A stretch of 64,000 nt of DNA from contig CANGGT010000001.1 in NCBI GenBank assembly GCA_947453375.1, positions 11,381-75,380 on the forward strand, written 5' to 3'. A program made the translations under genes and the position numbers. This document shows positions 3,395-20,978 of this stretch, piece by piece. Every line of letters starts with the position of its first letter. Positions within the stretch are counted from its first letter, which is position 1. The DNA is from Planctomycetaceae bacterium. Its GTDB lineage: Bacteria; Planctomycetota; Planctomycetia; Pirellulales; UBA1268. The notes under the pieces are model-generated. The model worked only from the letters and a program-made list of their open reading frames with translations, was not told the origin of the DNA and did no database searches.

Positions 3395-4351
3395 TCAGCC
3401 GGCGGGAGCCGGTGAGCCACCCTCCGGGCGACTGAGGAGGATGCTCGCGAGGACGACGAGGGGCTGCGGATCGACCCCGGCCGCGGCGAGGGGCGCAAGC
3501 GCCGCCCCCGCGCGGGCGAGGTGCGCTTCGATCCGCGCGGCGGCAGCGCCGCGCCCCGCGGCGGCCACGAGCGTGGGGCGGCCACTCGCCTCGTCGTCGC
3601 TCCAGGTTGCCGCCCGCTCGTCCTCGGCATCGTCGTCGAGATCGTCGCGAATCTGATAGGCGATCCCGACGGCCTCGCCGAAGGCCTCGAGCGCCAAAGC
3701 GAGCCCCGACGGCGCCGCCTGCCGGCAAGGGAGCCAGGCTGGCACCTCGGCGGCGAGCGCGAAGAGTCGGCCGCACTTGAGCCGCGCCACCTCCTCGGGA
3801 TCGACCTCCGCCCGGCCGAGGCTTCCCGCGAGATCGAGGAACTGCCCGAGATGGAGCGCGTCTTCGGTCTGTTGCTGAAGCGTCGCCACGCGGGCGGCGG
3901 CGCCGACGGGATCGACGGCGTGCGGTGCCGAACCGGCTTTGGCGGCGGCCCGGGCCAGCAGCGAGCGGGAGATCCCGAGCAGCCAGAGCGCTGCCTGGAT
4001 GGCGAGGGCCTCGTTGAAGCGCCGGTGCATCGCCGGTCGCCCGCGGCGCTTCTCGGCGTCGTCCATGCAGGGGAGATCGTCGACCGAGAGCGTGGCGCAG
4101 TGGAGCGCCTCGACGGCACACGCCGCCAGGAGACACGCCTCGGGGTCGGCCCCGACGACGCTCCCCGTCTCGAGGACGAGCACCGCCCGCCACCGGCTCG
4201 CCGGCGCCGTCGTCGATCCGTAGCGGATGGCATCCCGCAGCGGCGCGGGGATCGCAGCCGCATCGATCTCGGCGTCGAGTTGCTCGCGAACCTGCCGCCG
4301 CCAGGCGTCGATCCGGGTGCCGAGGGCATCGGAGGATGGAGGGATGGGCAT
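3395..4351 (-). CDS. trans-Polyprenyl diphosphate synthase (GGPP/FPP synthase family)
   Basis: 318-aa track ORF starting at ATG 4351. Both aspartate-rich motifs are present: DDLPCMDDAEKRRGRP (FARM) and YQIRDDLDD (SARM). Confidence 0.9.
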   Translation of the reverse strand: MPIPPSSDALGTRIDAWRRQVREQLDAEIDAAAIPAPLRDAIRYGSTTAPASRWRAVLVLETGSVVGADPEACLLAACAVEALHCATLSVDDLPCMDDAEKRRGRPAMHRRFNEALAIQAALWLLGISRSLLARAAAKAGSAPHAVDPVGAAARVATLQQQTEDALHLGQFLDLAGSLGRAEVDPEEVARLKCGRLFALAAEVPAWLPCRQAAPSGLALALEAFGEAVGIAYQIRDDLDDDAEDERAATWSDDEASGRPTLVAAAGRGAAAARIEAHLARAGAALAPLAAAGVDPQPLVVLASILLSRPEGGSPAPAG

Positions 4352-4563
4352 GGGCGAACCTGTGCGTGCCTTCGCCCTCGGGCTCCCTGGATGGGCGGAT
4401 CGTCAGATGGGCGGATCGTCAAAGGGCCTTTCGAGCGTTAGTCTACCGCCATCCGCCGCGCAGGAAGCCGCCCCGTATCGCCGCTCCCCCATCGGGATGG
4501 CTGGCTCGGCGGAGGCCCCGCCAGCATCGCGCCCCCGGTGTGCGGTGGTCAGAGGTCAACGCG

Positions 4564-5646
4564 ATGCCATCCGCGCCGAACGAAGCCGAACTTTCCCCTT
4601 CCATCCGCGCCGGCGTCGACTTCCTCGAGCGGAGCCAACTCCCTTCGGGGCAGTTTCCCGTCCAACGGACGCGGCGCAACCGCCCCGGCTGGCCGGTGGA
4701 AGAGGATCATTCGCCGTTCGCCACGGCGTATGTTCTCCACGCCGTGGCGTCGATCCCCCACCCCGCCGTGGCGGCAATGACGGCGCGGGGGGTCGAGTAT
4801 TTCCTCCGGGAGATGGACGGCCACGGCCTGTGGCGCTACTGGAACAAGGGATCGGTGCAGAGCGGACGGAAGGCCCATCCCTTCATCCCCGCCGATCTCG
4901 ACGACATGGCCTGCATCTCGGCGATGCTCCGGCGGGAGGGCATCTCGTTCCCCGACAACCGCCCCCTCATGCTCCACAACCGCGATCGCCACGGGCGCTT
5001 CTACACCTACCAGATCCTCCGCGCCGTCCCCACGCTCGATCCGGTCTACTGGTGGGCGATGCTCCGCGACCTCACCTGGCAGCGCTGGATCGTCTACTGG
5101 CGGTCGCAACCGACCACCTATGACGATGTCAGCGGCGTCGTCAACGCCAACGTGATCTGGTATCTGGGGAATCGTCCGGAAACACGAGGGGCCATCGACT
5201 GGCTGATCCGGGTCGTGGAGGCCGGCGCGGAGTCGGACTGCGACACCTATTACCACGACCCCTTTCCGCTCTGGCACGCGATCTCGCGTGGCTACGCCGC
5301 CGGCGTGACGCGCTTCGCGACGATCCGCGACACGATCCGCTCCCGGATCGAGTCCTATCTCCTCCCCAACGGCTCGATCGCGGCGCCCGACATGCACACG
5401 GCCCTGGCGATGTCGGCGCTCATGAACTTCGGCCTCGAATCTCCCTTCCTCCCCGCCGGCAGAGCGTGGCTCGAGGGAAAGCAGGCGACCGATGGTGGAT
5501 GGGATGCCTTTCCGATGTACTTCGGAGCGCGCCTCAAGCAAAACAGCTGGGCCTCCCGCGCCCTGACGACGGGCTTGTGCCTCGAGGCGATCCAGCGCCA
5601 CAGCGACCGGGCGCGACGAGCGACGGAGGTTGGTTCGTGCGCCTGA
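4564..5646 (+). CDS. Small class II terpene cyclase-like protein (alpha/alpha-toroid, prenyltransferase/squalene-cyclase repeat)
   Basis: Start moved to ATG 4564 inside track ORF 4336..5646, because the upstream 76 codons are Arg/Pro junk. DLDDMA at 4894-4911 resembles the DxDD(T)A protonation motif. A QW-type repeat KQATDGGW lies at 5479-5502. The product is 360 aa. Confidence 0.7.
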   Translation: MPSAPNEAELSPSIRAGVDFLERSQLPSGQFPVQRTRRNRPGWPVEEDHSPFATAYVLHAVASIPHPAVAAMTARGVEYFLREMDGHGLWRYWNKGSVQSGRKAHPFIPADLDDMACISAMLRREGISFPDNRPLMLHNRDRHGRFYTYQILRAVPTLDPVYWWAMLRDLTWQRWIVYWRSQPTTYDDVSGVVNANVIWYLGNRPETRGAIDWLIRVVEAGAESDCDTYYHDPFPLWHAISRGYAAGVTRFATIRDTIRSRIESYLLPNGSIAAPDMHTALAMSALMNFGLESPFLPAGRAWLEGKQATDGGWDAFPMYFGARLKQNSWASRALTTGLCLEAIQRHSDRARRATEVGSCA

Positions 5647-6689
5647 AGAGCATCCTCCGCGCTCACCGCTGGTGGGACACGCAACTCCCGGTGATGATGG
5701 CGCCGGTGTATCACGTCCTGGCGGAGGCCGAGCCGGCCCCTGCCGTGACGACAACGCTCGGCACCCTCCTCCTGTTCCTCGTCGCCTCGGTAGGGATCGC
5801 CGGCTTCGGCCATCTCTTCAACGATCTGTTCGACGTCGAGCAGGACGTGGAGAGCGGCGCGGCGAATCTCGTCGCCGGCCGCCGGCCGCTGCGCTTGGCG
5901 GCCACGTTCGTCGTCGTGCTCATCCTCGCCTGGGTGCCGTGGCTTTGGCTGCCGACGACCCCGGCGGTCTGGGCCCTCCTTGGCCTCGAGTTCGCCCTCT
6001 TCATCCTCTACAGCATGCCGGGATCGCGGCTCAAGGAGCGCGGCATCCTCGGACCGATCGCCGACGCCCTCTACTCCTGGACGATCTCGACGGCCGTGGC
6101 GCTCCTCGTCTTCGCCCGGCTCGGCGCCGTCTCGGTGCCGGCTTGGGCTTCGGCGCTCCTCGCCGCTTGGGCGTTCGTCCTCGGCCTGCGCCACATCCTC
6201 ACCCACCAGATCGAGGATGCCGGCCGGGATCAGGCAGCGGGGATGACGACCTTCGTGACGCGGCACGGTTGGCTGCCGACGTTTCAGATCCTCGAGCGCA
6301 TTCTCCTCCCGGTGGAGATGCTCCTCTTCCTGGCGATCCTCCTCGTGATCGGGATCGATGCCCCGATCGTGCCGATCGGTTTCCTCCTCTGGACGGGCCT
6401 CGTGGTGGCGCGCGAGCGGGATCGAGCGGTGGCGTGGCCTGCGACGGCGGCAGGCACACCGGCGATCCACCGGCTGTTCTTCCTCAACATCACGCTCCTC
6501 CAGCGCTTCTACACGCTCTGGTTTCCCCTCCTCACGCTCGTTCTCCTCGTCGTCCGGCATCCCACCTATCTCGGCCTCGCGATCCTCCACCTCGTCCTGT
6601 TCGAAAACGGCCTGGCGGTCTTCTTCCGCACCGATCTCCCCGACGTCCTCCGCCGGCTCCGCGCCGCCCCGCGACGAGGCTCGGCATGA
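5637..6689 (+). CDS. UbiA-family prenyltransferase (integral membrane)
   Basis: Lies within track ORF 5466..6689. Start set at GTG 5637 (GGAGG at 5625-5629), overlapping the stop of the previous gene by 10 nt. NDLFDVEQD (5820-5846) is the first Asp-rich motif and HQIEDAGRDQAAGMTT the second. There are multiple hydrophobic spans. Confidence 0.85.
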   Translation: MRLKSILRAHRWWDTQLPVMMAPVYHVLAEAEPAPAVTTTLGTLLLFLVASVGIAGFGHLFNDLFDVEQDVESGAANLVAGRRPLRLAATFVVVLILAWVPWLWLPTTPAVWALLGLEFALFILYSMPGSRLKERGILGPIADALYSWTISTAVALLVFARLGAVSVPAWASALLAAWAFVLGLRHILTHQIEDAGRDQAAGMTTFVTRHGWLPTFQILERILLPVEMLLFLAILLVIGIDAPIVPIGFLLWTGLVVARERDRAVAWPATAAGTPAIHRLFFLNITLLQRFYTLWFPLLTLVLLVVRHPTYLGLAILHLVLFENGLAVFFRTDLPDVLRRLRAAPRRGSA

Positions 6690-9241
6690 CGAGCCCTCTT
6701 CACACGTCGAAGGTGGTCGTAGGCCTCCCCCACTGGGGCGTGAGCGGGCCGTGCGTCTTCGCCGAGCGGCTCGTGCGCGGATTGCGCGCGCGCGGCTGGG
6801 AGGCGTCGGTGCTCCTCACCGAGGACGGGTGCCAGAAAGTGCCGGCGCCGGCCGGGCCGGCATCCCCGCCGGCCGACATCCCCTGCCTCACCCTGCCGGT
6901 GCGCCCCGACGATCCCTGGGGGGTGCGATGGGAGGCGATCATCCGCACCCTCGAATCCTCGGCCCCCTGCCACTACCTCATGCTCCACGACTGGCGCAAC
7001 AACGTCGTCGCCCCCCGGCTCTCTGACCGGGTGACGCTCGTGGGGCTCCTTCAGGCCGACAGCGAACTCGACTTCGAGCAGGCCGGCAGGCTCGGCCCCT
7101 TCTGGAATGCGATCGTCGCCGTCGCCGACCCGCTTCAGTTCTCGTTCGCCCACCGCTTTCCTCACCTCGCCCACCGCGCCGTCACGATCCGTAACTGCGT
7201 CCCCGACCTCCCCGAGCCGCCTGCCAAGCCCCAGGCCGGCCCGCTGCGGATCGCCTACTCCGGCGAACTGCGACGCACCCAAAAGCGGCTCGACGACATG
7301 ATCGCCGTCTCGCGAGCCCTCACGGAGCGGGGGATTTCCCACCTGCTCACGCTCTACGGCGATGGCGAATACCGCACCGAGCTCGAGGCACTCGCCGCGC
7401 CGCTCGTGTCGGCGGGAACGGTGCGGTTTGCCGGGCGGCTCCCCGCTGCCCGCCTCCCCGACGAGATGGCCGACCAGCATGTCTTCCTCCTCACCAGCCA
7501 GTTCGAGGGGCTCTCGATCGCGCTGTTGGAGGCGATGAGCCGTGGCTGCGTGCCGGTGGTGTCGGAGCTCGTCACGCAGTCGCTCGTCGTCCGCGATCGT
7601 CTCAACGGCTTGACGTGCCCCGTCGGCGACATCGGCAGCTTCGCCACGAGTCTCGCCCGCCTCGCCGACGATCCGGCGCTCCGCGAGCGCCTCGGGCGGG
7701 CCGCCTTCGAGACGATCCGCACCGGAGGCCACCGCATCGACGACATGCTCGACGGCTACGAAGCCCTCTTCGCCCGCCTCGATGCCCAAGTCGAATCGGG
7801 GGCTTTCAGGCGCTCGTGCGACTGGCTGCGGCTGCCTCCGGAAAGGGTGGGTGCGACGGAGATCCTCACGGCACTGCCGGGGGATCCCTGCGGCCGTCTC
7901 GCCCTCGATCTCGACTTCATCAACGCCGTGCCCGTGTGGCCCGGTCGCCCGTCGCCCCCCGCCACACCTTCCCAGCCCCCCGCCCGGCCGACGGCGCCGC
8001 CTCCCCCCTTCGAGAGCCACAAAGTGATCGTCTCGGCGGCAGGGGGGCAGATCAGCGGCGTCGACACGTTCACGATCCACCTCTTGCGACGCCTCCGCGG
8101 GATGGGAATCGATGCCCGCGTCCATGGCCACCGCGAACTCGCCGATCGCAGCGGCCTGGCGATCGCCGCCGACATTCCTGTCGACCCCCGCGAGACGCCG
8201 GCCTGGATGGGATGGCCGCAGGCTTGGCAGTCGATGATCGACCACCTCGAATCCCAGGCCCCCTGCATCTACATCCCCAACTACGACTACGAATACTCCT
8301 GCGTCGTTCCCCGGCTCTCCGAGAAGGTCCGCGTGGTGACGATCTGCCACAGCGACGATCCGATGCACTACGAGCACACCGCGCGACTGGCGCACGCCTC
8401 CGACGGGATCGTCGCCGTGAGCAGTGCGATCCGGCGCCACCTCGAGGGGCTCCTGCCGAGCCTCGCCGGAAGAATGCACACGATCCCCTACGGCATCCCC
8501 CTGATCAGTACGGGCTCCTCCGCAGTCCGCCCCCCGGAGGGCGTCCTCCGCGTGGCCTACGTCGGCCGCCTGATGCGCTACCAGAAGCGGGCCAATGACG
8601 TCGTCGCCATCGCCGCAGCGCTCGACCGGCGCGGCATCCCCTTCGAGATGCTCGTCGTCGGCGACGGGCCGGAGCGGACGGCGATGGAGCAGGAGGGGCG
8701 CCGGCTCGTCATGCGCCGCAAGCTCGCCTTCCTGGGAACCCAACCCAACGACGACGTCCTCGATCTCCTCGGCAGCTGCGACGCCTTCCTCCTCCCCTCG
8801 GCATTCGAGGGATTGAGCGTGGGGATGCTCGAGGCGATGTCACGCGGGGCCGTGCCGGTCGTCAGCGCCATCCGCAGCGGCGTGCCGGACGTCATCCGGC
8901 CCGGCGAGAACGGCCTCGTCGCCCCCATCGGCGACATCGAGGCTTTCGCCGATCGGCTCGCCCTCCTCCAGGCCGATCCGCAGTCCCGTGCACGGATGGC
9001 GGCGGAGGCGGTGCGGACGATCCACGACGAAGGCTACCTCGTCGACACGATGTTCGAACGCTACCTCGCCCTCTTCCGCGCGGTGGCCGCGGCACCGTCG
9101 CTCCGCATCCCCGGGCCGGTCGTGCCCCCGGCGCATCTTCGCGGGGAAGGGACGCTCTCCGCGTGGGCCCGGCGCGTCGCCTCCGACCCGCTCGCGTCGG
9201 CAGGGCGCGTGTTGGGCCGGTTCTCGGCACGCTCGTCCTGA
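6686..9241 (+). CDS. Tandem double GT4-family glycosyltransferase (two GT-B modules in one polypeptide)
   Basis: Real start is ATG 6686 (ATGA overlap with the UbiA stop) inside track ORF 5630..9241. Two GT4-like halves each carry the E(x7)E-type C-terminal block (QFEGLSIALLEAMSRGCVPVV and AFEGLSVGMLEAMSRGAVPVV). They are joined by the Pro-rich linker PGRPSPPATPSQPPARPTAPPPP. Confidence 0.85.
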   Translation: MTSPLHTSKVVVGLPHWGVSGPCVFAERLVRGLRARGWEASVLLTEDGCQKVPAPAGPASPPADIPCLTLPVRPDDPWGVRWEAIIRTLESSAPCHYLMLHDWRNNVVAPRLSDRVTLVGLLQADSELDFEQAGRLGPFWNAIVAVADPLQFSFAHRFPHLAHRAVTIRNCVPDLPEPPAKPQAGPLRIAYSGELRRTQKRLDDMIAVSRALTERGISHLLTLYGDGEYRTELEALAAPLVSAGTVRFAGRLPAARLPDEMADQHVFLLTSQFEGLSIALLEAMSRGCVPVVSELVTQSLVVRDRLNGLTCPVGDIGSFATSLARLADDPALRERLGRAAFETIRTGGHRIDDMLDGYEALFARLDAQVESGAFRRSCDWLRLPPERVGATEILTALPGDPCGRLALDLDFINAVPVWPGRPSPPATPSQPPARPTAPPPPFESHKVIVSAAGGQISGVDTFTIHLLRRLRGMGIDARVHGHRELADRSGLAIAADIPVDPRETPAWMGWPQAWQSMIDHLESQAPCIYIPNYDYEYSCVVPRLSEKVRVVTICHSDDPMHYEHTARLAHASDGIVAVSSAIRRHLEGLLPSLAGRMHTIPYGIPLISTGSSAVRPPEGVLRVAYVGRLMRYQKRANDVVAIAAALDRRGIPFEMLVVGDGPERTAMEQEGRRLVMRRKLAFLGTQPNDDVLDLLGSCDAFLLPSAFEGLSVGMLEAMSRGAVPVVSAIRSGVPDVIRPGENGLVAPIGDIEAFADRLALLQADPQSRARMAAEAVRTIHDEGYLVDTMFERYLALFRAVAAAPSLRIPGPVVPPAHLRGEGTLSAWARRVASDPLASAGRVLGRFSARSS

Positions 9242-9255: not shown

Positions 9256-11658
9256 TCACCGTCGGACAGGCAGGCTCGTCAGTCCGCGGACGCGCTCCGC
9301 AGGGCGCCACGACGGCCGGAACGTCTCGATGTCGGCGGCGTCGAGGTGCAATTCCCCGAGTCGCTCGTTGATCCTCGTCAGCGCGATCCGCGCCTCGGTG
9401 CGCGACAGCAGCGCCCCGGGACAGCTGTGGATCCCGAGGCCGAAGGCCAGATGCCGGTTGGGCGACCGCCCGATGTCGAATCGATCGGGATCGGGGAACA
9501 CCGCCGGGTCGCGGTTCGCCGCACCGAGACAGGCAAGGATCCGATCCCCGGCGGCGATGCCGAGCCCGCCGATCTCGATCGGTTCCTTCGCCGCGCGCGC
9601 GGAGGGGAAGTGGGTGGGGCTCTCGAAGCGGAGCATCTCCTCCACCGCCGGGCCGACGAGCTCCGGGTTCTCCCGCAGGCGGGCATACTGGTCCGGATGC
9701 CGGAGGAGGAGGAGCATGCCGTTCCCGAGCAGGCTCGACGTCGTCTCGTATCCGGCAAGGAGGAGGAGCACGCAGGTCGCGAGCACCTCTCTCATCGAGG
9801 CCTGCCCCCCCGGATCATGGGCCGCCAGGAGCGAAGAGACGAGATCGTCGCCGGGGCTGTTCTGGCGTTCCCTGATGATCCCCGCGAAGTAGTCGGAGAG
9901 CCGCCCCATGTTCCGCGCCGACACCTCGGGGCCTCCCGCCATGTCGGCGCAGGCCGCCAGCATCGGCAAGTCGGTTTCCGGGAGGCCGAGGAGGCCCATC
10001 ATCACTCTCCCTGGGATCCGATCGGCGAAGTGCTCCATGAAGTCGAAGCGGGCGAGTCCGGCGACGCCGTCGATCTGCTCGTCGGTGAGCGCCCTGATCC
10101 GTGATTCGAGCGCCCGCACGGCTGCACCGGTAAACGCCTCGGTCACGAGGCTGCGGAGGCGGCCGTGATCGGGAGGGTCCTGTGCCAGCATCGTGTCGCC
10201 GAGCACTCCGGCCTTCACCGTCCGGTTGGTCACCAAGGGGTCGCGAAACAGGGCCGAGACTTGATCATGGCGGGAGACGATCCAAGCCCCGTGCGACGGC
10301 GAGAAGAAAGGGCCCGGCTGCGCGAGCCAGCGCCGGTAGGTGGGATAGGGATCGTCGTGAAATGCCGCCGCTGCGGCGGCGACCGGATCGACGAGAGCGG
10401 CCGTCTCCCACGCGGCAGGAAGATGGAGCAAGCCGCCGCGGCCGGCGGCATCACCGCGCCGTCCGCCGGCAGGCCCGACCCGGAAGACCGCCCGACCCGA
10501 TCCATCGGTCGGTCCGATGCACCGTTCGGTGCGTGAGTCGTAGAGGCTCACCCGCACGTCGTATTCGCCCGGCACGAGCGCGAGACAGCGGACCTTGCAG
10601 CGGAGCGTGACCCCGGGCGGGTCGATGGAAACGACATCGCCGGGGAGCGTCGCCAACGGGGCGATTTCTCCGCGGCTCACCTGGATGGCGGCGACGACGT
10701 CGCCGAGGGGCTGCGTCGCCCGGACGGTGAAGACGACTTCGGCCGGTTTCCCGGATCGCGGCTGGCCACCATCCTTGCCGACAACGGCGATGGAATCGAC
10801 GACGATCGACCCCGGGGGCTCCGACGGCGCGGCCGGGGGAGCGGGCTGATCCTGCCGCACGATCCGATTCGGGCGGCGGATCGGCAGAGGGGGAAGACCA
10901 CGCTCGATCGCGAGCCGGTTGTAGGCATCGATCGCCGTCGTCGCGTCGGCGGTGAGGACCGGCCGGCCGCCGTCGAGGAGGAGGACACGATCGCAGAGCG
11001 TCTGGATCATGTTCGTGTCGTGCATCGCAAAGAGCATCGATCCGCCGCCGGCGACGTAGTCGGCGATGAAGCCGCGGAAGCGCTCACGGAAGCGCTGATC
11101 GCCGCCGCCGAGCCCCTCGTCGACGAGGAACAGATCGGGGTGGAGGCGGGCGTAGATCGCGAAGCCGAGCCGGCTCCGCATCCCGGCGCTGTAGGTGCCG
11201 ACCGGGGCGTCGAGCTGCTCGTGGAGGTCGGCGAAGGCCGCGATCGCCTCCGTCTCGGCCACGGTGTCGGCGACCGGCACGCCGTACAGCGCCAACTGCA
11301 TGCGGATGTTCTCGCGGCCGGTCTCCTGCGTGCTCAGAACTCCCCCCTGATCGATGCGGCAGACTTTGTCAGTATGGAGCGCGATCGAGCCGGTGGTGGG
11401 GAGAATGATCCCCGACACGAGATTCATCAGCGTGCTCTTGCCGGCGCCGTTGTGGCCGATGACGCCAATCACCTCCCCGGCATCGATCCGCAGGTCGACG
11501 TTCTCGAGCGCCCAAAACTCCCCGTCGCGGAGCCCCTGACGGGCCGGCAGGCCGCAGAGCTCACGGAGCGTGTCGACGGTGGCGTCGCGGAGACGGGCCT
11601 GGGGGCGGAGCGAGTAGCGCTTCGAAACCTGCTTCACGTCGAGGAGGGTTCGTGTCAT
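9256..11658 (-). CDS. Wzt/TagH-type polysaccharide-export ABC ATPase fused to a cytochrome P450
   Basis: 800-aa uninterrupted track ORF. ABC part: Walker A GHNGAGKST (11431-11457), signature YSAGMRSRL, Walker B LFLVDEGL. A beta-rich Wzt_C-like segment spans aa ~285-395. P450 part: AGYETT, EEMLR (ExxR) and heme loop FGLGIHSCPG (9415-9444, verified by hand translation). Confidence 0.85.
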   Translation of the reverse strand: MTRTLLDVKQVSKRYSLRPQARLRDATVDTLRELCGLPARQGLRDGEFWALENVDLRIDAGEVIGVIGHNGAGKSTLMNLVSGIILPTTGSIALHTDKVCRIDQGGVLSTQETGRENIRMQLALYGVPVADTVAETEAIAAFADLHEQLDAPVGTYSAGMRSRLGFAIYARLHPDLFLVDEGLGGGDQRFRERFRGFIADYVAGGGSMLFAMHDTNMIQTLCDRVLLLDGGRPVLTADATTAIDAYNRLAIERGLPPLPIRRPNRIVRQDQPAPPAAPSEPPGSIVVDSIAVVGKDGGQPRSGKPAEVVFTVRATQPLGDVVAAIQVSRGEIAPLATLPGDVVSIDPPGVTLRCKVRCLALVPGEYDVRVSLYDSRTERCIGPTDGSGRAVFRVGPAGGRRGDAAGRGGLLHLPAAWETAALVDPVAAAAAAFHDDPYPTYRRWLAQPGPFFSPSHGAWIVSRHDQVSALFRDPLVTNRTVKAGVLGDTMLAQDPPDHGRLRSLVTEAFTGAAVRALESRIRALTDEQIDGVAGLARFDFMEHFADRIPGRVMMGLLGLPETDLPMLAACADMAGGPEVSARNMGRLSDYFAGIIRERQNSPGDDLVSSLLAAHDPGGQASMREVLATCVLLLLAGYETTSSLLGNGMLLLLRHPDQYARLRENPELVGPAVEEMLRFESPTHFPSARAAKEPIEIGGLGIAAGDRILACLGAANRDPAVFPDPDRFDIGRSPNRHLAFGLGIHSCPGALLSRTEARIALTRINERLGELHLDAADIETFRPSWRPAERVRGLTSLPVRR

Positions 11659-11662
11659 GGGA

Positions 11663-12625
11663 CTACACCAGCATCCGTTCGACGACGTGCGGGCGAGCGA
11701 TCCGGCAGAGAAACCAGCCCAGCACGAAAATCAGCAGCGCGACCAGCGGGCCGATCGCCGCGGCAGCCAGGGAGCCGGGGGCACCGTAGGCGGCGGCGCG
11801 GATGCCCTCGAACAGCCAGGCGAGCGGATTGGCGGCATGGACGAGGCCGAGGAAGCTCTCCGGCTCGGGCACCATGAATACCGGCGTGACGGTGAACAGG
11901 ATCAGCGGTAGGGCGCTGGAGAAGACGTTGATGTCCTGCTGAAGGGCGCTCGGCGGCGCGACGAGCAGGCCGAGACCGGCGCCGGTGAGCGACAGGCCGA
12001 CAAGCCCCCAGGCCGCCAAGGGAAGCGTCACGGCGGGGGGCACGGCGAACAGGGCCATGAGGAGCGCGAGCACGGCCAGACGGATCAAATACCGGAAGCC
12101 GAGATCGAGGAGGATCGCCCCGAGCGGACCCTCGACAGGAAGGCTCTGGCGCCGGAACAGGGCTTGATTCCCGGCGAACAACCGGCGCGTGGCGTTGAAC
12201 GCCTCGAGAAACGCCTGCCCCATGAGCATCCCGCAGGCGCCGAAGAACGCGCTGTTCACCCCGCCGATCTCGCCGGCCACGAGGTGCGAACGCCTTCCGA
12301 ACGTGAACACCAGCGCCGTGAGCACGACCGGCGCGAAGGCGAGGACGATCCCCAGGGACGAGTGGCGGTATTGTTGGATCAGGCTTCGCACGAAAAGCCG
12401 CCAGGCGACCGGCGGCGATCCGGCGGCATCCCGGGCCCATTCGCGGAGACACCGGCCCGGATCGCGGAGCCGGCTGGTCGACGCGTGCAGCCTCACCGGC
12501 GTCCCGGGGAACGCCAAGCCCGGGTCACCCGCCACGCTCAGGTCACCCGCCAAGCCCAGGTCACCCGCTCCGCTTGCGGCGGGGGGCTGAGGGGAGTCCG
12601 CTTCGGGCGAAAGTCGATCAGCCAT
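11663..12625 (-). CDS. wzm: ABC-2 type polysaccharide/O-antigen export permease (Wzm-like)
   Basis: Track ORF 11663..12679(-). It has multiple hydrophobic spans typical of ABC-2 permeases and ends 4 nt before the ATPase gene. Start set at ATG 12625 (GGAGG 8 nt upstream; 8-nt overlap with the upstream stop). ATG 12631 or 12679 are also possible. Confidence 0.8.
   Translation of the reverse strand: MADRLSPEADSPQPPAASGAGDLGLAGDLSVAGDPGLAFPGTPVRLHASTSRLRDPGRCLREWARDAAGSPPVAWRLFVRSLIQQYRHSSLGIVLAFAPVVLTALVFTFGRRSHLVAGEIGGVNSAFFGACGMLMGQAFLEAFNATRRLFAGNQALFRRQSLPVEGPLGAILLDLGFRYLIRLAVLALLMALFAVPPAVTLPLAAWGLVGLSLTGAGLGLLVAPPSALQQDINVFSSALPLILFTVTPVFMVPEPESFLGLVHAANPLAWLFEGIRAAAYGAPGSLAAAAIGPLVALLIFVLGWFLCRIARPHVVERMLV
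12523..12576. repeat. Three in-frame tandem copies of an 18-nt unit inside the 5' end of the wzm-like gene
   Basis: ggtcacccgccacgctca / ggtcacccgccaagccca / ggtcacccgctccgcttg. On the coding (minus) strand this encodes GD(L/P)(G/S)(L/V)A hexapeptide repeats (GAGDLGLAGDLSVAGDPGLA). Confidence 0.7.
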
Positions 12626-13553
12626 CGGCATCCCCTCCGGCGAGGATCGCATCGCAGCGCTCGAGCCAGCCGACGGCATGCCCCCCGAACCGCTCAGCCA
12701 GGGCAGCGATCCCCGGCCGCGACGCCCGGGCCATCTCGCGACGCATCTCCGGCGGCACCTCCGGCTTCACCCCGGCGGGATGGTGATCCCTCTTCCTCGC
12801 CTCCGCGAGCACCCGCGGCTCGTCGGGGTCGACGCCGAGAAAGGTCATCACGCGCCGAAGCATCCCCTCCGGATCGGCGAGGGTGTCGTCGTACCAGCCG
12901 ATGAAGAACCGCTCCTTTGGCACGTGCATCCCCCAGGTGTCGATCGTGCGGAGGTAGTCGTTGCGCGCGGTGACGTGGGCCGAGGCGAAGAATCGCGACA
13001 GATCGGCCGGCGGACCGAGGCCGGGGCCACGGGACGCCCGCGACAACATCTGCCACTGCGAGAGCGCCCGCGACAGTGGCTCGCGGAGCAAGAAGATCAC
13101 CTTCACGTCTGGAAACAGCCGGGTGACATGTCGGACACCGGCGTCATCGAGGAGGGCGTAGGCGGGGGTGATCTCCCCCTTGAGGCGCCCGGCCCCGGCG
13201 GCGAATTGACGCCGGTACCAGGCGTCGTTCTTCTTTCCCGGGAGAAGGTACGAGACCTCCCGCAGCAATTCCCATCCTGTCGCCATCGATATCCGACCGC
13301 GAACAGTCTTCTCGAAGGTCCATCCAACGCGCTGACGCCACTCCCGTTCCGCGGCGCCCCGGCCGAAGAGCCCGGACCACACACTCCTGACCTTCGTGAA
13401 CCGCGGGCCGAGGCCTGCGAGGCGATCGAAATAATGGAGCTCCTTCGTCCCGGGGAGGTGGAGCTGCGGATGCCGTCGTAGACACCGATAGAGCCAGGTG
13501 GTGCCGGCCCTCTGGGCACCGATGCCGAGAAAGTCGACGGTGGGGAGTGACAT
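12618..13553 (-). CDS. Sulfotransferase family protein
   Basis: Track ORF 12618..13622(-). Start moved to ATG 13553 so the product begins MSLPTVDFLGIGAQRAGTTWLYRCL (PAPS-binding loop). It also has the FLLREPLSRALSQW block typical of the family. Confidence 0.8.
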   Translation of the reverse strand: MSLPTVDFLGIGAQRAGTTWLYRCLRRHPQLHLPGTKELHYFDRLAGLGPRFTKVRSVWSGLFGRGAAEREWRQRVGWTFEKTVRGRISMATGWELLREVSYLLPGKKNDAWYRRQFAAGAGRLKGEITPAYALLDDAGVRHVTRLFPDVKVIFLLREPLSRALSQWQMLSRASRGPGLGPPADLSRFFASAHVTARNDYLRTIDTWGMHVPKERFFIGWYDDTLADPEGMLRRVMTFLGVDPDEPRVLAEARKRDHHPAGVKPEVPPEMRREMARASRPGIAALAERFGGHAVGWLERCDAILAGGDADG

Positions 13554-13712
13554 CAACGGGACCGTCGGGGAGAAATGGCTGCCGAAAGCGGACGACGATC
13601 GGGGCGGGATGCCTGGGTGCATTCTAGCCAGCGGAGACTGGGCACGGGATTACCCCTCGCGGTCGCTTATAAGATGGCTTGGCAAGCCTTCCTCCGAGCC
13701 TTCGGCCCCCCG

Positions 13713-14870
13713 ATGCCCGACTGCATTCTCCATTACGGCTTCCCCAAGACCGGCTCGACCGCCATCCAACGGGCGCTGTCGGAGCACTTGGCCGATCCCC
13801 GCTTCGTCTACTCCCACTTCCAGGGTCCGATCCACGACCACGGCAATCACAGCCGCGCCATGGCCACCGCCTTCAGCGACCGGCCGGAGGAGTACCACAC
13901 CCATGTGGCGGAGGGCCTTTCAGCCGAGATCCTTCTCCAGGAACGCGGCGCGTTGCTCGGCCGCCTCGACGACGAGATCACCGCCCTCGCCGGGAGAACC
14001 TTTCTCCTCTCCAGCGAGAGCCTGGGATTTCTCCGCGGAAGCGGCGTGCAGCGGCTCCGCACGTTTCTCGAAGAGCGCCATCTCGTTCCTCGGACCGTCG
14101 GCTACATCCGCCCCCGCCGGGAGTCCGTCGAGAGCTCGTTTGTCGAGAGACTCAAGCACCGTCAGGGGGCTTTCAACGAGGTCTTCAAGGGACTCGGTGA
14201 TGGCCCACGCTCGCAGATGGCAACCCTCGATAAGGTGTTCGGACGGGAAAACGTCCTTCTTTGGAAGTATGACCGGCGCTCGTTTCCTGACCGGTGTGTC
14301 GTGGCTGACTTCTGTCGACGCCTGGGGATCGACCGGCCTCCGGTCATCGATCGGGAGGCCAACCGCTCGCTCTCCCTGCCAGCCATCCGTCTGCTCTTTG
14401 CCTATCGACACGCCTTCCCCGCATCGCCGCCGGGCCGCCGATCAATCGAACAAAACGCCTCTCTCATCGCGGCCCTCGGCGAGATCGACGGGCCGAGGTT
14501 TCGCTTCCATCCCCTCCTTCTCGAACCGGTGATCCGCGAGCAGGAAATCCACCTCGACTGGCTCGAGACGCGTGTCGGGGCGACGCTCCGCGACGGCATG
14601 GACGACGACGGAGAACCGTCGATTCGCTGTGAGGAAGACCTCCTCGACTTCTCCCCGGAGTCGCTCGACTGGCTCGCCCGGCGCACCGGCCGCGCCGCCG
14701 GCAGCCTGGCCGGAAAGGATCCCCGTGCCGTGGCCGACGCCGTCGATCGGCTCCGGGAGATCGCCGTCGCCGAGCAGGTCGCTGCGCAGCGAAAGCCGGA
14801 CGGTCTCGTCGCCCGACTCGGGCACCGGAGCCGACAGCTCCTGGGCCACTTCGGGCGCCGGTCGCCATGA
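13713..14870 (+). CDS. Sulfotransferase-like P-loop protein (family assignment tentative)
   Basis: Track ORF 13575..14870. Start moved to ATG 13713, giving MPDCILHYGFPKTGSTAIQRAL (a PKTGST-type loop as in carbohydrate sulfotransferase-like families). The remainder has no motif I can name. The stop overlaps the next gene (ATGA at 14867). Confidence 0.6.
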   Translation: MPDCILHYGFPKTGSTAIQRALSEHLADPRFVYSHFQGPIHDHGNHSRAMATAFSDRPEEYHTHVAEGLSAEILLQERGALLGRLDDEITALAGRTFLLSSESLGFLRGSGVQRLRTFLEERHLVPRTVGYIRPRRESVESSFVERLKHRQGAFNEVFKGLGDGPRSQMATLDKVFGRENVLLWKYDRRSFPDRCVVADFCRRLGIDRPPVIDREANRSLSLPAIRLLFAYRHAFPASPPGRRSIEQNASLIAALGEIDGPRFRFHPLLLEPVIREQEIHLDWLETRVGATLRDGMDDDGEPSIRCEEDLLDFSPESLDWLARRTGRAAGSLAGKDPRAVADAVDRLREIAVAEQVAAQRKPDGLVARLGHRSRQLLGHFGRRSP

Positions 14871-16054
14871 AGATCCTGCTCGTCAACGACTACGGCGTGC
14901 CGGTGGGGGGCGCCGAGAACATCGTCCTCTCGCTCCGCGACGAACTGCGCCGCCGCGGGCACGAAGCTCGGTTGTTCGCCTCGACGGCGGCTATCGCCGG
15001 GCTCCCGAATCTCGCCGACACCACCTGCCACGGCACGACCGGCCCCCTGCGAACTCCCCTCCAGAGCGCCAACCCCTGGGCCGAGCGGGCCCTGGAGCGG
15101 ATCCTCGCCGACTTTCGCCCCGACGTCGTCCACGTCAATCTCTACCTCACGCAACTCTCGCCGCTGATCCTCCGCGCGCTCCACGGAACGCCGAGTGTCT
15201 ACTACGCGCAGTGGTACCGGGCGGTCTGCCCCCTCGGCACCCGCCGCCGCCCTGATGGAAAGTCCTGCGAGGCCAACGTCGGCGCCGCCTGCCTGCGGTC
15301 AGGATGCCTGTCGGCGCAGGCCTGGCCGTTCTTCATGTTCCAAGCGCACTGTGATCGGGCCTGGGGCGGAGTCTTCCACCGCGTTACGGCGATCAGCCAG
15401 GCCGTGGCGGAGAGCCTCGATACCTACGGCGCGCCCCACCTCCATGGCGCGACGGTCGTTCCCCCCGGCACCGCCGTGGTCGAGCCGCGGCAGGATTTCG
15501 CGGCTCTTCCCGGAATCGTCGCCGCCGGCCGGCTCGTGCCGGAGAAGGGGTTTGACGTTCTCCTGCGGGCCTTTCGGATCGTTGCCGCGCGGATCCCGCA
15601 GGCCCGGCTCGAGATCGTCGGCGACGGGCCGGAGGCAGCGCCTCTGGGCAGGCTCGCCGCCACCCTCGGCGTGGCCGACAAGGTGTCGTTCCCCGGCCAC
15701 CTCTCCCATGCCGACACGTTGATCCGGATGCGCGGGGCCTGGGTGACCTGCGTGCCGAGCGTGTGGGCCGAGCCGTTCGGCATGACGGCGGCCGAGGCGC
15801 AGATGCAGGGGGTGCCGGTGGTGGCCAGCCGCACCGGTGGACTGGGCGAGATTGTCCGTGACGGCATCACCGGTCGGGTCGTGGAGCCGGGCGACATCGA
15901 CGGCCTCGCGGCAGCCCTCCTCGGGATGCTCGCCGACCGGGAGACGGTCGCCTCGATGGGACGGGCGGCCCACGCCGACGCCCGGGAACGTTTCGACCTC
16001 CCCGGCTTCGCGGCCCGCTTCGAAGCGATCTACCGGGAGGTCGCCGCCAAATAG
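14867..16054 (+). CDS. GT4-family glycosyltransferase
   Basis: 395-aa track ORF. N-terminus MKILLVNDYGVPVGGAENIV. C-terminal block EPFGMTAAEAQMQGVPVVASRTGGLGEIV is typical of GT4/GT-B enzymes. Confidence 0.9.
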   Translation: MKILLVNDYGVPVGGAENIVLSLRDELRRRGHEARLFASTAAIAGLPNLADTTCHGTTGPLRTPLQSANPWAERALERILADFRPDVVHVNLYLTQLSPLILRALHGTPSVYYAQWYRAVCPLGTRRRPDGKSCEANVGAACLRSGCLSAQAWPFFMFQAHCDRAWGGVFHRVTAISQAVAESLDTYGAPHLHGATVVPPGTAVVEPRQDFAALPGIVAAGRLVPEKGFDVLLRAFRIVAARIPQARLEIVGDGPEAAPLGRLAATLGVADKVSFPGHLSHADTLIRMRGAWVTCVPSVWAEPFGMTAAEAQMQGVPVVASRTGGLGEIVRDGITGRVVEPGDIDGLAAALLGMLADRETVASMGRAAHADARERFDLPGFAARFEAIYREVAAK

Positions 16055-16896
16055 TCGGCGATCCCCTGCCGCCAATCGGGGAGGGTGATCCCGCGGCCCG
16101 CGAGCTTCGCGGTGTCGAGGATGCTGTAGGGGGGCCGGGCGACGGGGCTTGGATACTCCGCCGAGGTGATCGCCGTCACCACCGTCGGCAGCCCCGCCTG
16201 CTGAAAAAGCTCCGTGGCGAACTCGTGCCAGCAGGTGCCGCCGGCGTTCGTGGCGTGGAACGTCCCCGGCGTACCGTCTTCGAGCAACGCCACGATCGCC
16301 GCGGCAACGTGCGGCACGTAGCTCGGCGTGCAGAACTGATCGGCGACGACGCGCACTTCCGGCCGATCGCGGGCCAGGACGAGCATGGTGTCGGCGAAGT
16401 TCCGCCCGCGGACCGGCCCCGAATCCCCCGCCGAGTAGAGGCCGCAGGTGCGCACCACCTGATGCCGCTCCCAAGCCCTTGCCGCCACCTCGCCGGCGAG
16501 TTTGCTCGCACCGTATTCGCCGAGCGGGCCGGTAGCGTCGTCTTCGCCATAGGGGGACTTCCGCGCCGCATCGGCGCCGAAGACGTAGTCGCTGCTGACC
16601 TGAACGAGGAGGGCGTCGACGTCGCGGCAGGCCTCGGCGAGGGCTGCGACGGCATGGACGTTGGCGGCCCGGCAGGCAGCCGGCTCGGTCTCGGCCTTGT
16701 CGACGGCGGTCCAGGCCGCGCAGTTGATCACGGCGCGCGGACGGAGGCGGCCGATGACGGCGCGGACCGCCGCTGGATCGGCGATGTCGAGGCTGCTCCT
16801 AGGCAGCGCCGCGGCGTTGGGCCCGAGCAGGCGACACAGCGTCCTCCCCAGTTGGCCAGATGACCCGGTAACCGCGATCGTGCCCGTCGTCGACAT
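16030..16896 (-). CDS. rmlD: dTDP-4-dehydrorhamnose reductase
   Basis: 288-aa track ORF. It has the Rossmann motif VTGSSGQLG, the catalytic YGASK (YxxxK) and RmlD-like length. Confidence 0.9.
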
Positions 16897-17881: not shown

Positions 17882-17937
17882 GGTGCAACCCTGGATGGGG
17901 AGGGAACGGGAGAGAGCCTCGAGGTCGGTCGGTAAGG

Positions 17938-19916: not shown

Positions 19917-19964
19917 TTTTCCCCTCTCCGTGCCGGCCCACCGCCCACCGCGAGCACGCCTGCC

Positions 19965-20849: not shown

Positions 20850-20978
20850 CCTGCCACCGCCGAAATCCCCGCGGCCGTGGCGGGAACGGCGATCGATTGG
20901 AAAGACCGGCGCGGTGTGCGATAGTGTCGGCTCGCCGGGCAGCGATCGCCCCCGGCCCCCTTGCGAAGGAAGACCGGC

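Follow-up and report, generated by a model that had tools for sequence, protein, structure and literature searches.

A Wzt-type ABC transporter ATPase fused in frame to a complete CYP107-like cytochrome P450 in uncultured Planctomycetia

Within the window, i.e. the whole stretch of 64,000 nucleotides of planctomycete DNA analysed here, a single gene joins the ATPase of a glycolipid or polysaccharide exporter to an oxygenase. As read from its sequence, a Wzt-type ATPase, consisting of a nucleotide-binding domain (NBD) and a divergent domain with the fold of a carbohydrate-binding domain (CBD), runs into a complete, Cys-ligated CYP107-like P450 about 12 residues past its natural C-terminal strand. 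Its translation follows immediately on that of a Wzm-type ABC-2 permease. The fusion is real and has been passed on vertically within a narrow clade of uncultured Planctomycetia. The P450 probably oxidises a sulfated glycolipid cargo close to the exporter; a strict dependence of export on the P450 is not favoured.

The fusion gene and its domains

The gene comprises the following parts, with amino acid positions referring to the fusion protein:

9256..11658, minus strand: whole fusion gene, Wzt-type ABC ATPase plus CBD-like domain plus cytochrome P450, 800 aa (ORF and translation, uniform GC3, Pfam ABC_tran and p450, full-length homologues)
10879..11658, minus strand: nucleotide-binding domain, aa 1-260 (Pfam, motifs, fold matches)
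10807..10878, minus strand: unstructured Pro/Ala-rich hinge between NBD and CBD, aa 261-284 (pLDDT <50 at aa 263-279; variable in length in the alignment)
10399..10806, minus strand: beta-sandwich with the predicted Wzt carbohydrate-binding-domain fold, aa 285-420 (sub-threshold Wzt_C, model, fold match)
10363..10398, minus strand: short Ala-rich linker, aa 421-432, TAALVDPVAAAA (alignment; low pLDDT at aa 422-438 in the full-length model)
9259..10362, minus strand: complete CYP107-like cytochrome P450, aa 433-800 (Pfam, PDB alignments, motifs)

The initial annotation had described one uninterrupted ORF of 800 codons, and this is what we find: a single frame with an ATG start and no internal stop. 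The motif coordinates given there all proved exact on re-checking. GC3 ranges from 0.70 to 1.00 over the whole ORF, including the Gly/Ala/Arg-rich junction (aa 376-435), and its continuity across the junction fits a single reading frame. Fusion homologues with 69-95% identity span nine 90%-identity clusters, that of the window protein having 177 members, and an architecture of 793-817 aa is common to P0001-P0005 and P0007-P0009 from ENA, JGI, Logan and NCBI assemblies. In none of these nine diverged clusters has the fusion been re-split, apart from the homologue P0006 with its frameshifted P450 part. The suspicion that a stop or frameshift between two separate genes had been missed could draw on P0006 and on the apparent origin of the window from a metagenome-assembled genome, but with the in-frame junction recurring in independent assemblies and the GC3 periodicity unbroken across it, a sequencing or assembly artefact is effectively refuted.

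The combination of an ABC ATPase with a P450 is rare. A search of 1.84 billion representative proteins shows it, among the best 150 matches, in a single 50%-identity cluster (P0002), and the remaining matches in two stretches are P450-P450 or double-NBD Wzt proteins. In the fusion chain Pfam detects ABC_tran (aa 51-181, 5e-18), a weak AAA_29 and p450 (9e-30, 104 bits against a cut-off of 22.8). Of the three profiles named in the initial annotation two are thus found, whereas Wzt_C (PF14524) remains below threshold (E 0.055, 13.9 bits against a cut-off of 30.4).

The NBD carries all elements expected of a Wzt ATPase: Walker A (GHNGAGKST, aa 68-76, nt 11431-11457), Q-loop (IDQGG, aa 102-106), signature (YSAGMRSRL, aa 156-164), Walker B (LFLVDEGL, aa 176-183) and H-loop (H213). 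Its best NCBIfam ABC matches are galactan Wzt/RfbE (132 bits against a cut-off of 400) and TagH (119 against 320 bits), both of sub-equivalog level, and by fold it matches Wzt, TagH, TarH and KpsT. The dN/dS is 0.10-0.35 in the NBD and about 1 in the hinge that follows it.

A beta-rich segment of ~110 aa had been noticed at the position of the Wzt CBD. This assignment holds by fold but not by Pfam, and the unfused relative P0012 lies equally below the Wzt_C threshold (E 0.09). An AlphaFold model of aa 1-425 (pLDDT 85.6) contains seven strands in aa 285-395 with a pLDDT of ~90. The top seven PDB matches to this model are all full-length WzmWzt of A. aeolicus (8dne/7k2t/8dku; E ~1e-33, 426-434 aligned columns), compared with ~2e-23 and ~250 columns for NBD-only Wzt chains. 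Judged by this predicted fold, a jelly-roll beta-sandwich after the NBD, the middle domain has the build of a Wzt CBD. It ends in a conserved strand (LHLPAAWE, aa 411-418) at which the unfused P0012, P0016 and P0019 terminate, and its dN/dS is 0.45-0.59. The alignment with unfused relatives places the junction exactly at the natural Wzt C-terminus. In the full-length model the final CBD strand (aa 415-421) directly precedes the P450; with a pTM of 0.48 the inter-domain geometry of this model carries no confidence.

The fusion shares with CBD-type Wzt proteins (A. aeolicus WzmWzt 7k2t/8dne/8dku, E. coli O9a Wzt) an NBD with the Wzt/TagH-type signature, an ABC-2 permease directly upstream and a C-terminal CBD-fold beta-sandwich with a conserved end strand; the A. 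aeolicus protein is its best structural match over NBD and CBD. It differs by ~380 extra residues (the P450) after the CBD, by a CBD too diverged for Pfam Wzt_C and an NBD below every NCBIfam equivalog cut-off, and by a locus in which terpenoid and sulfotransferase genes take the place of the usual terminator enzymes.

The P450 had been called complete with intact signatures, and the alignments agree. In the PDB, PikC, EryF, BioI and Vdh match it over their full length at E 1e-57 to 7e-68, and the PikC alignment (E 7e-68; query 8-379 of 380, chain 19-404) runs from end to end. Like these class I enzymes of the CYP107 type it has all catalytic motifs: I-helix AGYETT (aa 635-640), ExxR EEMLR (aa 673-677) and the Cys loop FGLGIHSCPG (aa 739-748, nt 9415-9444). 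By Pfam score, full-length similarity and motifs it classes as a predicted heme-thiolate mono-oxygenase, and its dN/dS of 0.19-0.33 resembles that of the ATPase part. Unlike the CYP107 enzymes it is joined at its N-terminus to an ABC ATPase and is without an adjacent ferredoxin or reductase; a motif scan of the window revealed no ferredoxin gene near the fusion. In P450BM3 and CYP116B-type enzymes, too, the P450 shares its chain with a second functional domain. Here, however, the partner is a transporter ATPase and not a redox partner, and as Pfam finds no reductase domain (FMN, FAD or Fe-S) in the chain, the protein does not belong to the self-sufficient P450s. The nearest stand-alone P450s among the best 150 matches are only 45-47% identical, so that neither an orthologue nor a substrate can be assigned. 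The same matches include CYP107-like P450s fused to methyltransferases, an epimerase and a metallo-beta-lactamase domain.

It is very improbable that the P450 is a non-catalytic auxiliary domain of the DesVIII/EryCII type, i.e. a glycosyltransferase activator which would help the neighbouring GT4 enzymes or bind lipid without oxidising it. GT4 genes do lie on both flanks of the fusion, and the NCBIfam family TIGR04515 ("P450-derived glycosyltransferase activator") matches aa 416-775 at 1e-48, but with 167 bits against a cut-off of 343 the protein falls outside this family. Such activators are defined by the loss of the heme-ligand cysteine, whereas the Cys loop and ExxR are conserved in all intact fusion homologues and in a sulfotransferase-P450 fusion (ST::P450, see below), as is the I-helix Glu-Thr, save for P0005 and P0009 with Glu-Ala in its place.

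The gene neighbourhood

The genes surrounding the fusion are:

2745..3374, plus strand: second sulfotransferase, ST2 (Pfam Sulfotransfer_3 2.4e-12)
3395..4351, minus strand: short-chain (FPP/GGPP-type) prenyl-diphosphate synthase (Pfam polyprenyl_synt 2e-28; NCBIfam FPP synthase subfamily 1.5e-36, below cut-off)
4336..5646, plus strand: monodomain class II terpene-cyclase-like protein, unannotated (alignment, profile matches; conserved core from ~aa 70)
5466..6689, plus strand: UbiA-family prenyltransferase (Pfam UbiA 5e-13; NCBIfam only generic or MenA-like prenyltransferase)
5630..9241, plus strand: double GT4 glycosyltransferase, convergent with the fusion (two Pfam Glycos_transf_1 matches)
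11663..12679, minus strand: Wzm-type ABC-2 permease (Pfam ABC2_membrane; stop 4 nt before the ATG of the fusion)
12618..13622, minus strand: sulfotransferase ST1, first gene of the ST1-Wzm-Wzt::P450 string (Pfam Sulfotransfer_3 1.4e-18; weak NoeE similarity)
13575..20849, both strands: other flank of the locus, six genes (Pfam), namely
13575-14870, plus strand: conserved unknown gene (syntenic in L001, L003)
14867-16054, plus strand: GT4 (Pfam; syntenic in L001, L003)
16030-16896, minus strand: RmlD (Pfam)
17938-18633, minus strand: RmlC-like (Pfam)
18540-19916, plus strand: GT2 (Pfam)
19965-20849, plus strand: RgpF-like (Pfam)

The permease gene ends, as the initial annotation had it, 4 nt upstream of the fusion, so that the ATPase is encoded beside an ABC-2 (Wzm) permease as a Wzt protein should be. 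Because the permease orthologues have 293-294 aa, its true start is probably near 12547; an orthologue precedes the fusion in the related loci L003, L086, L091 and partly L089. ST1 is 76% identical to aa 1-311 of P0011. For the double GT4 gene, whose orthologues have 850 aa, the real start probably lies at ~6686, and syntenic genes of 850-852 aa occur in L001, L003 and L090. The UbiA gene is syntenic in L001, L003 and L091, with homologues adjoining Wzt in L028 and L068, and ST2 is syntenic in L001, L003 and L091. The prenyl-diphosphate synthase gene is found at the same place in L091 and is absent from L003 and L001.

The cyclase-like protein has only sub-cut-off matches in Pfam and NCBIfam. 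It possesses an invariant PxDxDD motif (ADLDDM, aa 185-190) and a QW-type repeat (QATDGGW / QxxDGGW), and its profile matches squalene-hopene cyclase (1.5e-10), drimenol synthase and the cyclases 8paj/8pak of 361-365 aa. With DxDD and QW repeats it would be a class II terpene cyclase. Orthologues adjoin Wzt and/or UbiA in L028, L068 and L091, and all 66 proteins of this family are unnamed or "hypothetical", bar one labelled as methyltransferase. The side-by-side arrangement of prenyl-diphosphate synthase, UbiA prenyltransferase and monodomain class II cyclase is shared with MstE-type meroterpenoid pathways, and monodomain cyclases of the MstE clade have been reported in Planctomycetes (PMC12414744). 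However, the window protein matches MstE only at E ~2, squalene-hopene cyclase and 8paj better, and it carries DxDD where MstE uses DxD (PMC12414744). A link of an MstE-type pathway to Wzm/Wzt was not found described in the literature covered.

Judged by its gene content the locus is not a plain, classical O-antigen cluster, as Wzm/Wzt are accompanied by sulfotransferases, glycosyltransferases, rhamnose genes and terpenoid genes. These terpenoid and sulfotransferase surroundings offer the P450 a hydrophobic substrate other than a glycan cap. A comparable pair is known from M. tuberculosis, where CYP128A1 and Stf3 are proposed to hydroxylate and then O-sulfate a prenyl lipid, yielding the envelope sulfolipid sulfomenaquinone (S881; PMC6469627). 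In both cases a P450 and a sulfotransferase are co-encoded, here as ST1 and P450 in one gene string and in relatives even as one polypeptide; the likeness is at the family level. The window locus differs by additional glycosyltransferases, a terpene-cyclase-like protein and a dedicated ABC-2 exporter.

Rearranged, unfused and recombined relatives

In the sister lineage L001/L090 Wzm and most of Wzt (aa 1-402) have been lost in an in-frame deletion, and the upstream sulfotransferase is now continuous with the same P450, giving the ST::P450 protein. Its P450 has kept all motifs, with a dN/dS of 0.28 between the two derived lineages, which indicates that the P450 has been kept without the motor. 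Since these genomes could carry another Wzm/Wzt elsewhere, this independence from the transporter holds for this locus only.

An analogous locus exists in Gemmatimonadota, where P450 and Wzt are encoded by separate adjacent genes in reverse order. The Gemmatimonadales loci L028 and L015 co-encode Wzm, Wzt, P450, sulfotransferase, UbiA, cyclase-like protein, GT4 and GT2. Among the relatives of the window domains in a local BLAST the Gemmatimonadota P450 has only rank 66 and the Wzt rank 102, so they are not the closest relatives and the locus is to be regarded as an analogy and not as orthologous.

Comparison of the window with L091 gives 93% identity for the CBD and 62-67% for the P450. Sequence identities of this kind indicate that NBD, CBD and P450 recombine independently as modules and that the type of CBD does not co-vary with the type of P450. 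Next to the intact Wzm-Wzt::P450 of L086 and L089 no UbiA or cyclase gene is present within the available 7-10 kb; the link of the P450 to the transporter therefore appears closer than its link to the terpenoid genes, and the P450 substrate may not be a terpenoid. Other loci with the triad of cyclase-like, UbiA and double-GT4 genes have PhyH or radical SAM oxygenases in place of the P450.

Possible roles of a P450 tethered to an exporter

To our reading there is about an even chance that the exporter-tethered P450 hydroxylates, and thereby tailors, a sulfated lipid-linked glycoconjugate. The product of the locus would be a sulfated, lipid-anchored glycoconjugate, whose lipid would be terpenoid or prenyl-derived in the window and possibly acyl in relatives with a condensation-type acyltransferase or a FadD/ACP pair. 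Assembly of the product would take place at the inner membrane, on the cytoplasmic side, and Wzm2Wzt2 would carry out its export. As its tailoring mono-oxygenase the P450 would most probably hydroxylate the hydrophobic moiety and so create a site for a sulfotransferase or glycosyltransferase, in the order of hydroxylation and then sulfation that has been proposed for CYP128/Stf3 in the making of sulfomenaquinone. With the fusion at the CBD end, two copies of the P450 would sit close to the membrane where the transporter is loaded, so that oxidation and export would be co-localised and their enzymes expressed in equal amounts. The tether would be a convenience rather than a checkpoint, and the P450, supplied with ferredoxin and reductase from elsewhere, would be a recombinable module that survives deletion of the transporter genes. 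In favour of this tailoring role we count the intactness of both catalytic parts and the purifying selection acting on them; the position of ST1 two genes upstream and the formation of ST::P450 by in-frame deletion link the P450 to a sulfotransferase.

A possible, if unlikely, alternative is a near-neutral fusion, in which the Wzt stop codon was lost, two adjacent co-transcribed pathway genes were joined and the P450 works as if free, the tether adding co-expression only. This would agree with a single origin and narrow spread (the one 50%-identity cluster among the best 150 matches), with a junction exactly at the natural Wzt end followed by a short unconstrained linker, and with the tolerance of the same P450 for a very different N-terminal partner, the sulfotransferase; the CYP107-like fusions to other enzymes suggest that such fusions arise easily. 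The lack of re-splitting in the nine diverged clusters, P0006 apart, and the preservation of the fused frame in spite of domain-level recombination speak against it, both being weak points. The near-neutral fusion overlaps with the explanation as a tailoring enzyme.

The initial annotation had gone further and suggested that oxidation is physically coupled to export or serves as a checkpoint for it. In this case the P450 would make or proof-read the chain-terminating modification seen by the adjacent CBD, and oxidation would license export in an obligatory manner. The P450 is indeed attached ~12 residues from the CBD, and in characterised Wzt proteins it is the CBD which reads the cap at the polysaccharide end (PMC9445017). 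Furthermore, the fusion has been kept across a dS of ~1 with both parts constrained, the Wzm-Wzt::P450 unit persists in L086 and L089 while the remaining locus differs, and the CBD evolves fast, as substrate-specific CBDs would. Still, we consider an obligatory checkpoint improbable. The idea is weakened by the ST::P450 lineage, whose P450 is under purifying selection after the loss of the motor, by the lack of co-inheritance of CBD and P450 types (window against L091), by the unfused genes of Gemmatimonadota in their reversed order, and by surroundings that are not those of a classical O-antigen locus. In addition, CYP107-type P450s are known to act on hydrophobic small molecules and not on polysaccharide termini. 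The caps known so far are methyl, phosphate or Kdo, which are attached by transferases (PMC9445017).

Equally doubtful is a "processing exporter". Wzt CBD dimers swap their C-terminal strands and undergo a rigid-body movement in the ATP cycle (PMC9445017), and two P450 domains on such a mobile CBD dimer under the channel entrance might oxidise the lipid-linked cargo at loading, the ATP-driven CBD movement gating access to the heme. In such a machine, a new class of sulfated terpenoid-anchored glycoconjugate would be chemically matured and moved across the membrane in mechanically coupled steps.

The motor subunit of the characterised Wzm/Wzt systems does no more than read its cargo. The initial annotation knew of no exporter whose motor carries an oxygenase, and a full-text literature search on this architecture found none described. 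A motor with an intact oxygenase would thus be, within the literature searched, the first exporter subunit potentially able to alter its cargo chemically as well. Even if the fusion is a mere co-localising tether, it provides a Rosetta-stone link of the P450, the sulfotransferases, the cyclase-like family with its UbiA partner and the ABC-2 exporter into one pathway, and together with its locus it suggests that the planctomycete envelope contains a sulfated lipid-linked glycoconjugate not yet described.

Reading frame and domains of the fusion

The fusion gene lies at 9256-11658 (-) and runs from an ATG start over 800 codons with no interruption. Because long spurious ORFs are common at the GC content of the window (66-72%), this length alone is no proof of a gene. 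That the fusion is a real gene in one frame follows from its GC3, which is 0.70-1.00 in all 30-codon windows including the junction (aa 376-435), from two Pfam domains in that same frame, ABC_tran (aa 51-181, 5e-18) and p450 (9e-30, 104 bits against a cut-off of 22.8), and from the existence of full-length homologues. The initial annotation had described a single in-frame fusion, and the conservation in the homologues together with the continuous GC3 backs this description; on the same grounds an assembly artefact is ruled out and can be regarded as effectively excluded. The motif coordinates proposed there proved exact when the motifs were located in the translation, and the permease is indeed adjacent, as the upstream ABC2_membrane ORF stops 4 nt ahead of the fusion ATG. 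Among the Pfam families expected from that description ABC_tran and p450 were recovered, while the match of the beta-domain to Wzt_C is sub-threshold (E 0.055).

Domains of the fusion protein
aa 1-260, (-), nucleotide-binding domain (NBD) of the Wzt/TagH type, from NCBIfam and fold matches
aa 285-420, (-), beta-domain, preceded by a disordered Pro/Ala hinge
aa 433-800, (-), P450, from alignment to CYP107-type enzymes

The best NCBIfam ABC matches of the NBD are the mycobacterial galactan Wzt/RfbE and TagH, both under the equivalog cut-offs, and its best fold matches are Wzt, TagH, TarH and KpsT. An AlphaFold model of aa 1-425 (42 sequences) reached a pLDDT of 85.6 and has seven confident strands. 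Its best seven PDB matches are full-length A. aeolicus Wzt chains (E ~1e-33, 426-434 columns), compared with ~2e-23 over ~250 columns for NBD-only Wzt chains. Since the full-length chains outscore the NBD-only ones on this model, we accept the beta-domain as a predicted, diverged carbohydrate-binding-domain (CBD) fold.

CYP107-type enzymes, with PikC, EryF, BioI and Vdh among them, align with the P450 part from its N-terminal DPYPTY motif to its last residues (best E 7e-68). The P450 part retains ExxR as well as AGYETT in the I-helix and FGLGIHSCPG in the Cys loop. Three unfused Wzt relatives (P0012, P0016, P0019; 443-455 aa, 62-67% identical) stop directly after the conserved strand LHLPAxWE, therefore the P450 is joined to the natural Wzt C-terminus via about 12 Ala-rich residues. 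This strand forms aa 415-421 in the full-length AlphaFold model (pLDDT 75). With its low-confidence linkers and a pTM of 0.48, this model gave no confident domain arrangement, so a fixed arrangement cannot be claimed.

Occurrence and conservation of the architecture

Searching 5.8 billion proteins by a word-indexed method we found eight clusters of homologues with ABC_tran and p450 (793-817 aa, 69-95% identity), drawn from ENA, JGI, Logan and NCBI, and alongside them a frameshifted copy. The window protein belongs to a 90% cluster of 177 members, some of which the JGI automatic annotation already names P450/ABC polysaccharide-transport ATPase; looking up contigs by the exact sequence of this protein returned no record. 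The dN/dS values from a codon analysis of four diverged orthologues indicate that NBD and P450 are both maintained by selection.

dN/dS along the fusion
NBD, 0.10-0.35
P450, 0.19-0.33
CBD, 0.45-0.59
hinge, ~1

Among the best 150 HMMER matches in 1.84 billion 50%-identity representatives, the homologue P0002 is the sole representative of the fusion. Ten of the largest long or two-stretch matches were given a Pfam check and none of these ten is an independent ABC + P450 fusion; in a few additional two-stretch matches of 775-800 aa the best-matching stretch is the ATPase part.

Non-fusion matches in the Pfam check
P0137, P0139: P450-P450
P0142, P0181, P0195, P0216: double-NBD Wzt
P0150, P0204, P0161, P0263: P450 with methyltransferase, epimerase or lactamase_B

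The P450s in the first and last of these groups are CYP107-like and about 40-45% identical to the window domain, their partners being SAM methyltransferases, an NAD-epimerase, a metallo-beta-lactamase domain or a second P450. Such non-redox P450 fusions seem to be frequent among metagenomic proteins. The stand-alone P450s closest to the window domain share 45-47% identity with it. Wzt and P450, the two halves of the fusion, each belong to a familiar family, and P450s occur fused to many different proteins.

The GTDB species representatives contain no near relative of the fusion (best Wzt 39% identical), and full-text literature searches for a P450-exporter or P450-ABC fusion returned nothing relevant. 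Together with the homologue, selection and HMMER results this means that the ABC-P450 architecture is real, arose once, has a narrow distribution and is uncharacterised. The earlier statement that no described exporter motor carries an oxygenase still holds: as far as these searches extend, no exporter ATPase with a P450 has been described, and the combination occurs in a single planctomycete clade.

As to the host, SucC (20961-22172) shares 86-91% identity with proteins whose names refer to Planctomycetaceae, Pirellulales and Planctomycetia MAGs. The protein at 55449-58652 (+) scores above cut-off for TIGR02603, a putative CxxCH heme-binding domain, and matches TIGR02604, the PVC-type N-terminal model, below threshold; it and the protein at 58576-61059 (+) fit a planctomycete origin. 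Both large proteins show weak alpha-L-rhamnosidase-like similarity at the N-terminus, which may be of interest where the locus makes dTDP-rhamnose. A tRNA scan found none.

Gene content of the locus and its relatives

On the strand of the fusion the genes are ordered as a first sulfotransferase (ST1, 12618-13622), the ABC-2 permease Wzm and then Wzt::P450.

Genes beside the fusion
2745-3374 (+), second sulfotransferase (ST2)
3395-4351 (-), short-chain prenyl-diphosphate synthase of the FPP/GGPP type, between ST2 and the cyclase-like gene
4336-5646 (+), unannotated terpene-cyclase-like protein
5466-6689 (+), UbiA prenyltransferase
5630-9241 (+), double-GT4 glycosyltransferase, convergent with the fusion
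Other flank: conserved unknown gene, GT4, RmlD, RmlC-like, GT2, RgpF-like

With its sulfotransferases, glycosyltransferases, UbiA, cyclase-like protein and prenyl synthase, the locus is not a plain O-antigen cluster; it resembles a pathway that would make a sulfated glycoconjugate whose lipid part is terpenoid or prenyl-derived. The 1203-codon glycosyltransferase ORF overlaps the UbiA ORF in another frame; as the orthologous glycosyltransferases have 850 aa, its start is probably near 6686, an example of how far ORF length can mislead in DNA of 70% GC. UbiA has only generic or MenA-like NCBIfam matches and its gene adjoins the cyclase-like gene, so a DPPR synthase of the mycobacterial arabinan type was rejected. 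The prenyl-diphosphate synthase gene is present in the window and in the fusion locus L091; L003 and L001, syntenic in other respects, lack it.

The cyclase-like protein carries the motif P-x-D-x-D-D, which is invariant in its family, and repeats of the QW type (QxxDGGW). Direct phmmer against the PDB gave no significant match, but a four-sequence profile reached terpene cyclases, monodomain class II enzymes among them, namely squalene-hopene cyclase (1.5e-10), drimenol synthase and ent-CPP synthase, as well as the 361-365 aa cyclases 8paj/8pak and, weakly, MstE. According to a recent survey, monodomain cyclases of the MstE clade occur in many phyla, Planctomycetes among them (PMC12414744). 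In total we found 66 proteins of this family (~350 aa), one labelled 'methyltransferase' by JGI and the remainder unnamed or 'hypothetical protein'.

Members of the cyclase-like family in other loci
L028 (Gemmatimonadales), 12320-13387
L068 (Pseudomonadota), 11203-12186
L092-L094, 10001-11089

Across at least three phyla, a UbiA gene lies beside the cyclase-like gene in most loci examined, and a double-GT4 glycosyltransferase often does too. Two of the three other loci examined, one of them with planctomycete-specific domains, combine the cyclase-like gene with UbiA and an Asn-synthase-like gene, followed in one of the two by a 1094-aa double GT4. PhyH dioxygenases and radical-SAM enzymes occur near the gene in all three, and a P450 or Wzm/Wzt within 10 kb in none.

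The window shares synteny with two fusion loci, L003 and L091. ST1 of L003 (8829-9113, equivalent to 12618-13622) is a 95-aa remnant in the P0003 lineage, made of aa 23-72 plus aa 300-333, and the ST1-Wzm-Wzt stretch therefore looks deletion-prone. Two further syntenic loci, L001 (NCBI GCA_040399705.1) and L090, encode a 706-aa sulfotransferase::P450 (P0011).

Sulfotransferase::P450 genes, relatives of window 9256-13622
L001, 10001-12121
L090, 183-2303

Its aa 1-311 correspond to the entire ST1 (76% identical) and aa 308-706 to aa 403-800 of the window fusion (81% identical), last Wzt strand and linker included, and judged by this alignment the protein arose by a deletion that took out Wzm together with Wzt aa 1-402 and kept the frame. 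The breakpoint falls in Gly/Asp-rich stretches (ST1 end ...AGGDADG; Wzt ...RRGDAAGRGG). The two lineages differ by a dS of 0.21 with a P450 dN/dS of 0.28 and all motifs intact, so that at this locus the P450 is kept under selection without the motor.

The Gemmatimonadales loci L028 and L015 have the order Wzm, FkbM methyltransferase, P450, Wzt (sub-threshold Wzt_C match, E 0.0064) and cyclase-like protein (38% identical), the latter gene overlapped by a sulfotransferase-domain ORF, and further on UbiA, GT2, GT4 and a PAPS-reductase-family gene. In contrast to the window, P450 and Wzt are separate genes in opposite order. As the two reach no better than ranks 66 and 102 in a comparison with the window domains, we downgraded this locus from orthologous evidence to an analogy: it is of the same kind, but no proof of orthology. 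The Pseudomonadota locus L068 has Wzm, Wzt, cyclase-like protein and UbiA without a P450.

Genes found at fusion loci give a hint that some product variants may be acylated, as in mycobacterial sulfolipid pathways.

Acylation-related genes
L086, 7557-9017 (+), condensation-type (PapA-like) acyltransferase directly upstream of Wzm
L091, 2904-5526 (-), FadD-like adenylating enzyme plus ACP, both near the locus

The modules of the window fusion were compared with those of L091, L003, L089, P0005 and P0008. Their identities are discordant, which points to recombination at the domain borders within the fusion clade, comparable to the cassette exchange of serotype loci.

Identity of the window fusion by module
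L091: NBD 96%, CBD 93%, P450 62-67%
L003: NBD 91%, CBD 73%, P450 82-91%
P0005: NBD 94%, CBD 51%, P450 65-78%

Possible role of the tethered P450

As far as sequence can tell, an ABC-2 exporter ATPase has at the end of its CBD a P450 of class I type that is maintained by selection and apparently catalytic; sulfotransferase, glycosyltransferase and terpenoid-lipid genes accompany it in the locus. The reading we prefer, with about even confidence, is a tailoring hydroxylase of an exported, lipid-linked sulfated glycoconjugate that is tethered to the exporter. CYP107-type P450s typically oxidise hydrophobic small molecules, not polysaccharide termini. The P450 would most likely act on the hydrophobic moiety of the glycoconjugate, and the new hydroxyl could serve as acceptor for sulfation or glycosylation. 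The same hydroxylate-then-sulfate logic has been proposed for CYP128A1/Stf3 in sulfomenaquinone synthesis (PMC6469627). During the ATP cycle CBD dimers, whose C-terminal strands are swapped, move below the NBDs as one rigid unit (PMC9445017); with the fusion, two P450s would thus be placed where cargo is loaded on the cytoplasmic side. Electrons would come from a ferredoxin system encoded elsewhere, given that no ferredoxin turned up near the locus in a motif scan. The weakest step of the reading is the terpenoid substrate, because L086 and L089 keep Wzm-Wzt::P450 with no UbiA or cyclase genes within reach.

A near-neutral fusion of adjacent pathway genes, which we hold to be rather unlikely, overlaps with the tailoring hydroxylase and differs from it only in whether the tether matters. 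Still less probable is an export checkpoint or a cap-making P450. The tight tether between CBD and P450 and the fusions in L086 and L089 would suit it, but the usual oxidation targets of CYP107 enzymes speak against it, as do the selection on the P450 after loss of Wzm/Wzt in L001/L090, the separate genes in Gemmatimonadales and the independent recombination of NBD, CBD and P450. The last three observations likewise disfavour the obligatory coupling of oxidation to export suggested by the initial annotation, and on their basis we read the tether as a helpful co-localisation, which would not be an obligatory checkpoint. A non-catalytic P450-like glycosyltransferase activator, highly improbable, was rejected on its score under the cut-off and the conserved Cys ligand.

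The fusion provides a Rosetta-stone link which places the P450, the sulfotransferases, the terpene-cyclase-like/UbiA module and the Wzm/Wzt exporter in one pathway. This pathway would make an undescribed envelope glycolipid, and the fusion is a testable case of possible export-coupled chemistry.
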